Source of the DNA: Escherichia phage vB_EcoS_ESCO30
DNA length: 64,000 bases
Sequence record: NC_106513.1
Strand: one strand, 5' to 3'
The translations under genes were made by a program, and so were the position numbers. Positions 9,219 to 13,254 of the stretch are shown one piece after another; the first letter of the stretch is position 1; the number at the start of each line of letters is the position of its first letter. Under the pieces are notes generated by a model. The model searched no databases, was not told the DNA's origin, and saw nothing but the letters and a program-made list of their open reading frames with translations.

Positions 9219-9953
9219 ATGAATCAAGTTAAAATGAATATTACCCGTAATTTCCCGCATATTTCCCGCGTCATGATTTGGGATCTGGACGGCACTATCA
9301 TTAATTCGTTTCATCGTGTAGCGCCTTGCTTTGATAGCGAGGGCAATTTAGATTTAAATAAGTATAAAAATGAAGCCTGCAAACATGATTTAATAATGCA
9401 AGATACACTATTGCCCCTTGTTACATATATGCGCCAGTGCATGAATGACGCAAATACTTTAAACATTATTTGCACCGCTCGACTAATGAGCAAGTCGGAC
9501 TATTATTATTTGCGTAAACAAGGGTTGCGCGGTCGTGGTGATAGTAATATCCGCGTGTTTTCCCGCGATACACTACACAAATATTTTGAGGCTGATAAAG
9601 TTAGCGAGATATACCACAGCAAAGACGCAGTTTATAAAAGTTACTATTTTGGGTTATTCAAACAATTATATCCGAACGCTGATTTTACGATGATTGATGA
9701 TCATAAAGGCGTGCTATCAGCGGCGGCATCATACGGATTTAAAACGCTGGACGCGCAAGCCGTTAACGATATTCTATCAATCGGTGTCACATTGATAGGT
9801 GAAACCTTTATTGATGAATCTCTTGAGGATGATAATGATTATCAGTTCCTAGCCGACCGCCTGCAATTATGTTGGGAAGGTATGACCGAGGAGGAACGCG
9901 CGGAATATAGTTGCAGCCCGCAACAATATATTGAGAAATTAAAAGTTGCGTAA
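9219..9953 (+). CDS. dmp: HAD-family 5'-deoxyribonucleotidase (Dmp-like, 244 aa)
   Basis: N-terminal HAD motif MIWDLDGTIINS (DxDGT); pre-early position as in T5. Confidence 0.65.
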   Translation: MNQVKMNITRNFPHISRVMIWDLDGTIINSFHRVAPCFDSEGNLDLNKYKNEACKHDLIMQDTLLPLVTYMRQCMNDANTLNIICTARLMSKSDYYYLRKQGLRGRGDSNIRVFSRDTLHKYFEADKVSEIYHSKDAVYKSYYFGLFKQLYPNADFTMIDDHKGVLSAAASYGFKTLDAQAVNDILSIGVTLIGETFIDESLEDDNDYQFLADRLQLCWEGMTEEERAEYSCSPQQYIEKLKVA

Positions 9954-9970
9954 TAATTAAAGTTGAAATT

Positions 9971-10007
9971 GTTTCACCCTGCAATTAAAATGGTTGCAGG
10001 GTGAAAC
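9971..10007. terminator. Strong 14-bp-stem hairpin GTTTCACCCTGCAA...TTGCAGGGTGAAAC between convergent genes
   Basis: Perfect inverted repeat read directly; lies between dmp (+) and the minus-strand peptide operon. Confidence 0.6.
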
Positions 10008-10117
10008 AGTTAGCATGGTAATAGTAACGGGGGTGGCGGTTAGCAGACTAAGTATTTTCGCCGGAGGCAGTGAGCACACCTTCATGTGTAATCTTATGAA
10101 ATTTCGAGATTTCCCAA

Positions 10118-10363
10118 TTAGCGCATAGAATGGTCGTCAAACCTGTGTTCTGGTCTGAACTCACGGAATCTCTTCCGCGACGCCCGAGATCCATCCGACC
10201 ACTCCCGCTCAAACTCCGCACGTTTCTCGTCAAACTTCCGCTCCCTTTCCGCAATCTCCCGCGATACTTCCGCAGTATACTTACGATGCTTGTTAATAGC
10301 CGCAGTCATTCCGAAAACTCCCGCGAGTACCCCGATAATAAAAGCAACTATAATACTAAACAT
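10118..10363 (-). CDS. Small single-pass membrane protein with charged C-terminal tail (81 aa)
   Basis: N-terminal hydrophobic helix MFSIIVAFIIGVLAGVFG; GAGAGGG SD; last gene of the coupled array. Confidence 0.5.
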   Translation of the reverse strand: MFSIIVAFIIGVLAGVFGMTAAINKHRKYTAEVSREIAERERKFDEKRAEFEREWSDGSRASRKRFREFRPEHRFDDHSMR

Positions 10364-10547
10364 CTAATTCCCTCTCAATTTGCAGAATACGGGTGCTATC
10401 ACAACGTTGCAGTAGTACTAGCTTTTCTAGAATAACTTGTTGTTGTTTCACCTGAGCCTCTAGAGTTTTTAGGCGGAGATACACGATACGAGAGACAATG
10501 AGGATTACCCAGACTAATATTACTATTAGTGTAACTGTCACTTCCAT
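10356..10547 (-). CDS. Small membrane peptide (63 aa), member of tandem family
   Basis: MEVTVTLIVILVWVILIV TM segment; start overlaps upstream stop (TAATG). Confidence 0.5.
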   Translation of the reverse strand: MEVTVTLIVILVWVILIVSRIVYLRLKTLEAQVKQQQVILEKLVLLQRCDSTRILQIERELDV

Positions 10548-10654
10548 TATTTACGTTTCTCCGATAGTAAGGTTTCGATTCTAGCTAAGTGATTATCTAA
10601 GATACATTGCCCAATAATCACAATCCCCAGTAGTGCAATAATTACCCATTCCAT
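10547..10654 (-). CDS. Small membrane peptide (35 aa, MEWVIIALLGIVIIGQCILDNHLARIETLLSEKRK)
   Basis: Hand-translated; TAATG coupling at both ends; paralog of 10654-10809. Confidence 0.4.
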   Translation of the reverse strand: MEWVIIALLGIVIIGQCILDNHLARIETLLSEKRK

Positions 10655-10809
10655 TATTTACGATCCTCTAATAAAGTTTCAATTCTAGATAATCTATTGC
10701 TCAACTGCATTAATTTAATTTCTGTTTGGGTTACAGAGGTATCTATTACACGTAAGCCTACAAAGAGAAGTACCAATAAGACGAATATGCCAATAATTAC
10801 CCATTCCAT
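10654..10809 (-). CDS. Small membrane peptide (51 aa, MEWVIIGIFVLLVLLFVGL...RIETLLEDRK)
   Basis: Internal ATG of track ORF 10654-10839; shares MEWVII start and RIETLL C-terminal motif with neighbour. Confidence 0.5.
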   Translation of the reverse strand: MEWVIIGIFVLLVLLFVGLRVIDTSVTQTEIKLMQLSNRLSRIETLLEDRK

Positions 10810-10937
10810 TAGATCCACCCCGCCATAGCTGCTAACCAAAAACCTACGAAGATTAGGAATAATACAAAACCAAATCCGTAAATGTTAACCCACGCTTCGT
10901 ACACTTCTCCGCGTCTGTTCTTTCTTTTGTTTGACAT
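10809..10937 (-). CDS. Small peptide (42 aa) with basic N-terminus and hydrophobic C-terminus
   Basis: Hand-translated (MSNKRKNRRGEVYEAWVNIYGFGFVLFLIFVGFWLAAMAGWI); stop overlaps next start. Confidence 0.35.
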   Translation of the reverse strand: MSNKRKNRRGEVYEAWVNIYGFGFVLFLIFVGFWLAAMAGWI

Positions 10938-11114
10938 ATCTTTCGTGCCCCCGTAAATGCGGTATTTTAAAATATTTTATAATTTGTGCATAACCAACCA
11001 TGCTCGTGACTTCCTAGAAGGGCTTCTCATTTTCTTGCATAGTGTTTTATGCCAGTACACCATCCAAGAAATAAAAAATTTAGTTTACTTGGATGTCTTT
11101 TTGTTTTATACTAA

Positions 11115-11381
11115 TTACAAGTAATTAGATTGTTCTAGTTTAAATTTACAATCACCATATTTAAGGTCAAACTGACTGAGATCCCACCATCCAAACTTAG
11201 TACGGAGCTGTACTACTGGAAAGCGATCTCCCTTAATACGAACTTTTTGAACCTTGAGACCGTAATGTTCTTCTCCCGCACCACCAAAAGATTTTACAAA
11301 TCCCGTGCAAAATGGTTTGGGAGCAGGTGCACAACCAGATAACATAACTGCGGCAACTAGTGCAATCACAAACTTTTTCAT
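11115..11381 (-). CDS. llp: Llp-like lytic-conversion lipoprotein (88 aa precursor)
   Basis: Signal peptide with lipobox LSGC; divergent from adjacent receptor-binding protein gene; own early-type promoter. Confidence 0.6.
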   Translation of the reverse strand: MKKFVIALVAAVMLSGCAPAPKPFCTGFVKSFGGAGEEHYGLKVQKVRIKGDRFPVVQLRTKFGWWDLSQFDLKYGDCKFKLEQSNYL

Positions 11382-11412
11382 ATTTATCTCTCCATTTCTA
11401 ATTTATGAATCT

Positions 11413-11441
11413 ATTATAGCAAAATAGAGGGATGAAAGCAA
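11413..11441 (-). promoter_or_regulatory. Sigma70 promoter TTGCTT-17-TATAAT upstream of llp
   Basis: Reverse complement of 11436-11441 gives -35 TTGCTT, of 11413-11418 gives -10 TATAAT, 17-nt spacer. Confidence 0.65.
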
Positions 11442-11466
11442 ATACATTTTTATAATAGGAGATTAT

Positions 11467-13254
11467 ATGGGTTTTTTCGCTGGAAAATATAGTGATGGTA
11501 AAACTGTATTATCGCTAAACAAAGTGAATGGTGGGGATATTAATGCCCACAAAACTCCTAATGCCAATACTATATTTCACTCTGATATGCCATTTGTTCT
11601 AGTTGAGAGTACTTATGAAAGTGCATTAAGTAGCGCTGGGAATGGTTTCTACGTATGCCAGATGCCTTCTGTGATAGCTAACCTAAAGAGTAATGATCCT
11701 GGTAGGGTTATACTAACCGCTGTTGAGATAAATGGTACGCATAGAGCTTTTCTTAATGGTACTCAATCCCAGGTTGGACAATTTCTTGCATTTTTTGAAG
11801 ATCCCCCTATTGGTAGGGCGGGTGCTGAATTAGGTCTTACGTCAGCTTTTGCATCTGGTAACAGTTTAGCACATGGTACTTATACTTATAACTCTAGTCT
11901 AGGACATGAAGAGTCAATAGCTAGACAAGGTACTGGTGGTACTATATCACAGGCTTCTGGGTTTAACTTATACAGACCTGGCGGGGCATATGCCGGTGAA
12001 GCCATAGGTAGAGCGTGGACTTTAGCAGGATTTCCAGCCGGAGCATCTAAAGTATCAATAAATAGTGGTAATGTTGACTTCTGGCACCCTAATTGGCAGG
12101 CTCCTATAGGGGCGGGAAAAAGAGGTCATAATTGGTTTTATGTTTGTAACTCCAATATACGTGGATATGCTGGTAAAAAGGGTACTACGCCAAGTAATGT
12201 TAGTGTATTATATAATTCTTCAACCTATCCAGATAAGGTTTATGTATGTAGAGGCTCGACATCTAATTTAGCATCACAGGCAGCAAAGAAGAAGTATGTT
12301 CAAGATAGTTATAATATTACTCCGACCAAGGTTATTTGGTATGTGCTGAATCTTAGATACTCTAACGGTGGTATGAGCGTTGCTAGTAATCCTTTTACTG
12401 GGTCTGATATTCGTATAAGCCCCTCTAACTTTACTATAAAAGGTGTTAGTCTTCCAAATACTAGTTACAAATTCATTAATCAGAATGCCTTTGGTAACTT
12501 ATCATCTAGACCTGATATGGAGTACATTGGTAATAACGTTGCTTATACCGGAGTCTTTGGAGACACTACAGCAAGATGCGAAATTGTAGGTTCTAATAAA
12601 GGCTCTTTATGGTCCCCTGTAAGTTACGGAGGTTCTAAGTCTCAGATAAGTATTTACAAATTCTCTGCTGGTAAACAATGGTATGTTAATTCCAATAATA
12701 ATACTATAGGTAATGAGCATGGGGTTGTTTGGGGACCTTCTTCAGTACCGTTACGATTACTACCAAATAACGTAGCTAGTACTTACATAGGTGATGACAT
12801 AAACCCTTCTTATCCAGGTACAGGGAATAAGTACGTAGCCCTATCTACAGTAGGTCTTGGATTACCTAATGCAAACTCTACAGTAATTCTAACTACTGAA
12901 GTAGTTGCCGGAAATCTTAATACAGCAGGAGGTCCTATACGAACATATGGTGGTACTGCGTGGCAGGTGCAAGGTAGAAGACAACAAAGTTATACCGGTG
13001 GTGATGGGGTATTCCATCAAATATTAACTTTACCCCCTAATCAGTTGGTGCCCTTCCATACTACAGCTTCTTATAGCTATACACAGCAGTGGGCTAGTCG
13101 ACCTGATGATTTAACATTTACTAGAAGTGGATTTATTTACACTATTAAAAATCTGGGTAACGGTAATGCTGAGTTAGGTGTAGTTATACATGCAAATGAA
13201 TCCGCTGCAGTTTTCTTACCGAGATTACGAGTAACAGTTCAACGCCTTACCTAA
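11467..13254 (+). CDS. Putative receptor-binding tail protein (pb5/Oad-like, 595 aa)
   Basis: Gly/Ser/Asn/Thr/Tyr-rich; sits divergently beside llp as in T5; no catalytic motif seen. Confidence 0.55.

Follow-up and report, generated by a model that had tools for sequence, protein, structure and literature searches.

What might a chain of five very small genes for membrane peptides be doing beside the gene for a receptor-blocking lipoprotein in a T5-like phage? The question is raised by a 64,000-nucleotide stretch of Escherichia phage vB_EcoS_ESCO30 (NC_106513.1; hereafter the window), which comes from a T5-like phage (Tequintavirus) and runs in the orientation opposite to that of the T5 reference. 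A preliminary description, made from the letters of the window alone, had proposed that five consecutive minus-strand open reading frames (ORFs) of 42, 51, 35, 63 and 81 amino acids (aa), at 10118-10937, form a translationally coupled array next to llp that acts on the cell envelope. T5 is a classic model phage, and the notes in its reference record for the genes in this place (T5.159-T5.162 in NC_005859) say only 'contains single transmembrane domain'; hundreds of genomes of Tequintavirus and Epseptimavirus carry the conserved array, among them those of phages under development for therapy and biocontrol. Our result chiefly corrects the record. On the comparisons given below the array is real and under selection, and it is already annotated, independent of receptor type and dispensable for canonical lysis; the correction extends to misleading public names for its peptides.

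Layout, annotation and conservation of the array

The five ORFs, called A, B', B, C and D from the llp side (Table 1), lie where the preliminary description placed them, and both their coordinates and their overlaps bear out a tightly coupled array downstream of an Llp-type lipoprotein gene. TAATG, in which a stop and a start codon overlap, had been given as the junction throughout; this is correct for three of the four junctions (A to B', B' to B and B to C), whereas C and D share an 8-nt overlap, ATGTTTAG. In a mechanical ORF list B' starts at a TTG further upstream and is 61 aa long. To judge from its Shine-Dalgarno-like (SD-like) site and from homologs that all begin MEWVII, the better supported start for B' is the ATG at the TAATG junction. 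Such a site is found 4-10 nt upstream of each of the five starts, with pairing energies to the 3' end of 16S rRNA of −5.8 to −8.6 kcal/mol for the array genes (−8.6 kcal/mol at A) and −6.4 kcal/mol for llp. Each peptide has a single hydrophobic segment, as had been claimed, with 19-residue Kyte-Doolittle means of 2.3-3.1. The segment is C-terminal in A and begins at residue 1-4 in B', B, C and D, where an amphipathic or charged helix comes after it; the soluble parts of the array members come to 16, 29, 42 and 62 aa.

Table 1. Positions of the array genes and of neighboring features in the window
Feature	Position	Strand	Remarks
Gene A	10809-10937	−	42 aa; T5.159 homolog
Gene B'	10654-10809	−	51 aa from ATG; additional B paralog, not in T5
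Gene B	10547-10654	−	35 aa; T5.160 homolog
Gene C	10356-10547	−	63 aa; T5.161 homolog; optional member
Gene D	10118-10363	−	81 aa; T5.162 homolog
Direct repeats flanking B'	10636-10656 and 10791-10811		21 nt, perfect
llp-type receptor-blocking lipoprotein gene	11115-11381	−	88 aa; lipobox LSGC; context, not an array member
Probable llp promoter (putatively of the whole operon)	11413-11441	−	TTGCTT, 17-nt spacer, TATAAT; A/T-rich upstream
llp-A spacer	10938-11114	−	177 bp; remnant of a 104-aa ORF (phrog_16810); 3' end is the SD-like site of gene A
pb5-type receptor-binding gene	11467-13254	+	divergent from llp
Terminal-repeat boundary	near 10076		placed by homology
Inverted repeat, possible (bidirectional) operon terminator	9967-10011		between convergent D and dmp, inside the terminal repeat
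dmp	9219-9953	+	pre-early gene of the terminal repeat
ORF antisense to D	10130-10435	+	101 aa

The array is not an unrecognized feature: it has been catalogued since the annotation of the T5 genome and is represented in PHROGs. In the T5 reference, the interval from llp (T5.158) to the right terminal repeat is occupied by T5.159 (42-45 aa), T5.160 (35 aa), T5.161 (64 aa) and T5.162 (81 aa), and A, B, C and D of the window are 76%, 94%, 75% and 91% identical to these products, respectively. The order of the genes, their strand relative to llp and their overlapping junctions are all alike in the two phages, as is the distance of ~41-42 bp from array to terminal repeat. In contrast, T5 has no counterpart of B', the 51-aa paralog of T5.160 that lies between A and B in the window; B' is annotated as a coding sequence in other Tequintavirus records, such as those of MM-1 and LmqsSP1. 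All five peptides fall into PHROGs (8596, 6369 for both B and B', 5851 and 6447) to which no function is assigned, 6447 being labelled just 'membrane protein'. The accompanying statement that no function had been described for such an array does stand, since full-text literature searches found no study of the T5.159-T5.162 genes.

The names that GenBank and UniRef give to the array peptides contradict one another (tail fiber, receptor binding, receptor blocking, tail assembly protein and H-N-H endonuclease) and look like annotation-transfer errors from neighboring genes.

BLASTN found the region in 444 phage records, mostly of Salmonella and Escherichia phages, and A and D are conserved in phages of E. 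coli, Salmonella and Shigella. Scans of the five peptides against Pfam, NCBIfam and PADLOC returned no match above threshold. The best Pfam match of D was LapA_dom (PF06305; E = 2.2e-4, 21.5 bits, below the gathering cutoff of 28), and a ZapG/YhcB-like match reached 15 bits, below its cutoff of 33.5. Word-indexed searches of 5.8 billion proteins found no relatives of D, C or A beyond T5-like phages; a HMMER profile of D run against 1.84 billion representatives recovered T5-like proteins, one borderline charged-repeat match and no cellular relatives; and PDB sequence searches yielded generic charged helices only. By these searches the four families are orphans confined to T5-like phages.

Selection was examined in 33 loci (the window itself together with seven annotated records and 25 contigs from IMG/VR) from the ratio of nonsynonymous to synonymous substitution rates (dN/dS), calculated pairwise by the method of Nei and Gojobori on codon alignments. 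In the annotated frame dN/dS was 0.14 for A, 0.21 for B, 0.42 for C and 0.36 for D, compared with 0.33 for Llp in the same loci, while the two shifted sense frames gave values of 0.7-2.1 and the three antisense frames were always worse than the annotated one. Because the annotated-frame values of 0.14-0.42 are the lowest of the six frames, the array ORFs are, by this measure, genuine genes under purifying selection. Conservation across T5-like genomes, earlier named as a check, is thus evident both in the presence of the genes and in the frame under selection.

Eighteen of the 33 loci have the architecture A-B-C-D, eight have A-B-D, five have A-B'-B-C-D and one has A-D (one B among these was identified by eye). 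No locus lacks A or D, and A is found also in the divergent phage Eos; B is nearly universal, missing only from phage smaug; C is optional, missing in nine loci and truncated in one; and B' is rare. Whatever the architecture, the junctions overlap (by TAATG, ATGA or ATGTTTAG), with a single exception. Because these overlaps persist in the A-B-D and A-D architectures, selection maintains the coupling even where members have been lost, and the conserved overlap fits co-production of the peptides in a fixed ratio, though overlaps of this kind are common in compact phage genomes.

The exception is phage NBSal005 (locus L009, 2317-2484), in which a premature stop shortens C to 55 aa from the usual 63-64 and leaves it ending 16 nt before D. 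This is the only broken junction among the loci compared, and a natural knockout showing C to be dispensable.

Gene families and the origin of B'

A has a basic N-terminus (KRKNRR) followed by an aromatic-rich hydrophobic helix that forms the C-terminal end of the peptide and carries a GxxxAxxxG small-residue motif. It matches phrog_8596 over its full length (E = 1.1e-30) and, like D, is unrelated to the other array members.

The 51-aa and 35-aa peptides, B' and B, had been proposed as paralogs, and indeed they are: both match phrog_6369 over their full length (E = 3e-15 and 3.8e-26, respectively), and profile-to-profile comparison of the two with hhalign gave a probability of 94.7% (E = 5.7e-8). 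In an alignment of 19 distinct sequences B consists of an N-terminal helix and an almost invariant GQC(I/V)LDNHLARIE motif. B' has an N-terminal helix and then a heptad-patterned helix ending in RIETLLEDRK, and when aligned with B it resembles B plus about 16 inserted residues. The B' cassette is flanked by perfect direct repeats that cover the TAATG junction and the first codons (Table 1). Because such repeats are the signature of tandem duplication, B' probably arose in that way, and recombination between them would delete the cassette cleanly.

C has an N-terminal helix and a heptad-patterned helix of about 40 aa with ERELDV at its end, and it matches phrog_5851 over its full length (E = 8.7e-31). 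The preliminary description gave C the same architecture as B' and B; the layout is indeed common to the three, and heptad spacing of Leu, Ile and Val can be read directly in all of their sequences, but homology of C to the other two is not demonstrable with hhalign (12% probability against B and 2% against B').

D has an N-terminal helix with invariant glycines at positions 11, 15 and 18, a highly charged, conserved helix at residues 24-66 and a variable tail, and it matches phrog_6447 over its full length (E = 3.1e-47). One segment of D, EW(S/N)DGSRASR(K/R)RF, is conserved. AlphaFold2 predicts a single helix over residues 2-69, with a mean predicted local distance difference test score (pLDDT) of 72. 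Within D, dN/dS is 0.19 in the charged helix and 0.70 in the C-terminal tail.

Several relatives (among loci L021, L023-L025, L028 and L029) have an HNH homing-endonuclease gene directly after D, with a start that overlaps the D stop; the insertion slot corresponds to ~10076-10120 of the window. Beside the insertion, the D tail REFRPEHRFDDHSMR is replaced by RMSESGDKPVDRRSS, KIDGKS or AKVSDEE. Some genomes have an altered D tail or an endonuclease fragment and no intact endonuclease, a pattern resembling the trace of an endonuclease gene that invaded and was later lost. The 101-aa ORF antisense to D showed no purifying selection in its own frame and is most likely an artefact of the GA-rich, repetitive codons of D.

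Transcription with llp and independence from the receptor module

The gene upstream of the array encodes an 88-aa lipoprotein that matches the Cor/Llp family phrog_1119 (E = 1.8e-26) and also Pfam LPAM_1, and whose homologs in related records are annotated as receptor-blocking or Cor proteins. A probable promoter precedes it, and T5 has an annotated promoter with the same TTGCTT and TATAAT hexamers at the equivalent site. The downstream part of the window's promoter, TATAATAGATTCATAAATT, resembles PN25, a classical and strong early promoter of T5; T5's own llp promoter differs somewhat, and we claim only a near-consensus promoter of early type. The T5 annotation places a promoter only upstream of llp and neither a promoter nor a terminator between llp and T5.162. 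The promoter of llp is the only possible one upstream of the array because the next gene, pb5, lies on the other strand. A scan of 9800-11600 found no terminator-like site, and the hairpin that follows llp closely is a weak one (z = −2.1), with no U-tract. Since the sole possible upstream promoter is that of llp and no terminator lies between llp and A, the array is probably co-transcribed early with llp. Llp is reportedly 'expressed early'.

An independent promoter in the llp-A spacer was considered and rejected: we found no convincing site there, and the conserved block in the spacer is accounted for by the remains of an ORF and by gene A's ribosome-binding site, so that the spacer is not itself a regulatory region. 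The ORF, which encodes an acidic protein of 104 aa and reaches at its 3' end into the start of gene A, in a different frame, is intact in some Epseptimavirus genomes (L004, 1254-1568; L031, 1823-2137); it is frameshifted or interrupted by stops in other genomes and survives as a stop-riddled remnant in T5 and the window. With the intact protein as query, tblastn recovered the remnant in the window (E = 1e-6) and in T5 (E = 2.4e-10), with in-frame stops in both.

At the other end of the array, the right terminal repeat starts 41-42 bp past the stop codon of the D homolog in T5 and in phage MM-1, from which the boundary in the window is placed near 10076. The strong inverted repeat beyond it has 18-nt arms that are 94% complementary and folds as RNA into a 15-bp stem (z = −4.0); it could be a terminator of the operon, although no clean U-tract comes after it. 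An Rfam scan returned just a meaningless sub-threshold microRNA match on this hairpin.

Llp blocks the receptor after the onset of primary infection (PMC10644984, with reference to Decker et al. 1994), and the receptor-binding protein (RBP) is inherited together with Llp as a unit (PMC8624392). The preliminary description took adjacency to llp as a sign that the array acts on the envelope. The comparison with T5 makes this a weak argument. The Llp of the window is of a type annotated in BtuB-type phages and, at 88 aa, differs from the 77-aa Llp of T5, which is directed to FhuA and is not homologous to it (26% identity over a forced alignment), whereas the arrays of the two phages are 75-94% identical. 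The receptor module (pb5 and llp) is thus swapped between T5 and the phage of the window, with the array outside it.

More distant relatives point the same way. Eos (L007, 1225-2622) has, beside its RBP gene and with no llp, an A homolog and four unrelated proteins of 78, 107, 76 and 183 aa, each with an N-terminal helix and a coiled coil. In the same slot, from the RBP gene to the dmp end of the terminal repeat, and with the same strand logic, Klebsiella phage phi1_146058 (L034, 4301-4990) carries two small membrane proteins and Providencia phage PSTCR5 (L036, 4722-5270) five peptides of 29-50 aa. These arrays too are made up of small proteins that have one hydrophobic helix apiece, and coiled-coil segments occur in several of the proteins; however, homology to the array of the window is recognizable only for the A-like peptide of Eos, the others being unrelated, and unlike the window none of the three phages has llp at that position. 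We found no functional annotation for these positional analogs. Judged by content and position, the place from the RBP gene to the terminal repeat generally hosts genes for small membrane proteins in this family; divergent relatives keep such arrays there without llp, and the array is evolutionarily uncoupled from Llp.

The 183-aa protein of Eos and a 153-aa protein of the Klebsiella phage both have an N-terminal helix, a coiled coil, a Ser/Gly/Ala-rich tail and a C-terminal Cys motif (YDCGGSSFSPSCD and YCDSGSSSSSFDSGCSF).

Possible roles of the array

The array may act in superinfection exclusion or modulation of transport, as proposed earlier, and we favor, as a weak guess, a related reading to which we give a probability of roughly three in ten, namely that the peptides form an accessory complex and work alongside Llp to modify the infected cell's envelope. 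It can be taken as fairly safe that the genes would be made early, in fixed proportions and together with llp. With moderate confidence, the peptides would then insert into the inner membrane and oligomerize, A and D by way of small-residue motifs in their helices and B, B' and C by way of short leucine-zipper-like segments; we propose oligomerization because G11, G15 and G18 of D are invariant, D is predicted to be one long helix, A has GxxxAxxxG and B, B' and C show heptad spacing. Such a complex would most plausibly block, at the inner membrane, the entry of secondary phages or damage by membrane-acting agents, an exclusion-type role that would not depend on the outer-membrane receptor of the phage.

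This reading gains from the gain and loss of B', C and even B among loci, which, taken with the orphan families and the differing arrays in Demerecviridae, suggests the fast turnover typical of exclusion or host-interaction genes. Inner-membrane proteins of superinfection exclusion are familiar from lytic and temperate phages: T4 Imm and Sp, P22 SieA and HK97 gp15 are, like the array peptides, small, accessory and fast-evolving membrane proteins encoded by the phage and produced during infection, and the array shares its probable transcript with llp, a proven type of exclusion and receptor-blocking gene. In contrast, Imm, Sp, SieA and gp15 are encoded by single genes and have no sequence similarity to the four or five coupled peptides.

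Several further points weigh against the envelope-modifying complex. No array member matched known exclusion proteins (Imm, Sp, SieA or Cor/Llp) in PHROG, Pfam or PADLOC searches, the Cor/Llp match being limited to the neighboring lipoprotein, and literature searches found no expression, localization or phenotype data on the array. Evolutionarily the array goes its own way, as the comparison with T5 and its presence without llp in Eos attest, and its link to lytic conversion would be transcriptional and positional only. Across Tequintavirus and Epseptimavirus, A and D are well conserved and never missing, which fits a role in the phage's own cycle equally well, and membrane peptides are not special here, about 12 other small T5 genes between 10 and 34 kb carrying transmembrane notes. 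Finally, when flanking Lys and Arg residues are counted (the positive-inside rule), a cytoplasmic location results for the N-terminus of A and for the C-terminal portions of B', B, C and D; we do not rely on this count, which gets the established periplasmic orientation of lambda Rz wrong.

If an inner-membrane layer of lytic conversion, or the host-takeover device discussed next, were true, it would add to what is known of how T5-like phages protect the infected cell and would bear on mutual exclusion among phages in cocktails.

A tentative but serious candidate is that each peptide acts as an inhibitor in host takeover, binding and modulating some protein of the host inner membrane, for instance a transporter, a protease or a component of the cell-wall or division machinery. 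Bacterial small membrane proteins and the E protein of phiX174 act on larger membrane partners in this manner, and one helix with a short charged or amphipathic segment is the typical architecture of such regulators. That A and D are conserved among E. coli, Salmonella and Shigella phages suggests that the host target, too, is conserved, and the PHROG category of D is 'moron, auxiliary metabolic gene and host takeover'. The sub-threshold resemblance of D to LapA_dom and ZapG/YhcB-like proteins leans the same way, but these matches fall under the curated cutoffs and are of the helix-plus-charged-segment type that arises by composition. No target can be named, and the strict coupling of four or five differing peptides better fits a joint complex than a set of independent inhibitors.

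A more elaborate form of that joint complex, which we regard as doubtful, would be a hetero-oligomer in the inner membrane with A and D as its constant core and the zipper peptides B, B' and C as exchangeable parts, made early with Llp and sealing the infected cell's inner membrane against competitors, whether these send in DNA or attack the membrane; the conserved stop-start junctions would set the ratios of its subunits. Were it true, it would give T5 lytic conversion a second layer that does not depend on the receptor, and would be a new type of superinfection exclusion with several subunits. The present analysis gave no sign of an unusual mechanism.

The preliminary description had also suggested peptides like holins or antiholins, and more broadly the array might supply modulators of lysis timing (antiholin-, holin- or pinholin-like peptides) or accessories of the spanins. 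This we think unlikely. Small single-helix proteins with charged C-termini do resemble class III holins and antiholins, and an N-terminal helix followed by a coiled-coil-like helix, as in B', C and D, is found in spanins and holins such as lambda Rz/Rz1, T4 PseT.2/PseT.3 and T5 T5.041/044/045, i-spanins in particular. A lipoprotein gene is close by, as with spanins, but the neighbor here is a receptor blocker and not an o-spanin. The periplasmic coiled-coil domain of an i-spanin is typically about 100 aa or more, and about 130 aa was computed for lambda Rz; the soluble parts of the array members, at 16-62 aa, are by this estimate far too short to span the periplasm, and no lipobox occurs in any of them or in an alternative frame. 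The PHROG matches to lysis families were not significant, the best for a holin being that of B' to phrog_689 (E = 0.32) and the positional analog in the Klebsiella phage matching an Rz-like PHROG weakly (E = 0.009); Pfam gave no holin matches. The lysis genes of T5 form a complete set in another place (the holin-endolysin pair T5.041/T5.040 at ~20 kb and spanins T5.044/045), about 90 kb from T5.159-T5.162, and likely early co-expression with llp would be odd timing for lysis effectors. The array is not a lysis cassette and is not needed for canonical lysis, and a holin or spanin role is not called for.

Less probable still is that the peptides tether phage DNA to the membrane for replication, concatemer processing or packaging, after the model of phi29 p16.7, a protein with a membrane helix at its N-terminus, a coiled coil and a basic end that binds DNA. 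D would suit such a part, with its N-terminal helix, long charged helix and Arg/Lys-rich segment (18 Lys or Arg in 62 residues), and the locus is close to the terminase genes and only ~42 bp away from the boundary of the terminal repeat; A and D are moreover universal in the subfamily. However, Pfam, NCBIfam and PDB sequence searches detected no DNA-binding domain, the tail of D is its least conserved part (dN/dS of 0.70, as above) and is replaced or truncated in many phages, and the proximity to the repeat boundary may be incidental.

That these are spurious or decaying ORFs, chained as a by-product of a compact genome, is very improbable: C and B' are dispensable in many genomes, one C copy has a premature stop and the adjacent 104-aa ORF is clearly decaying, but purifying selection in the annotated frame in all four families, overlaps kept in every architecture, an SD-like site before each start and the presence of A and D in all Tequintavirus and Epseptimavirus loci examined argue otherwise, and for A, B and D the selection analysis largely refutes a lack of function.

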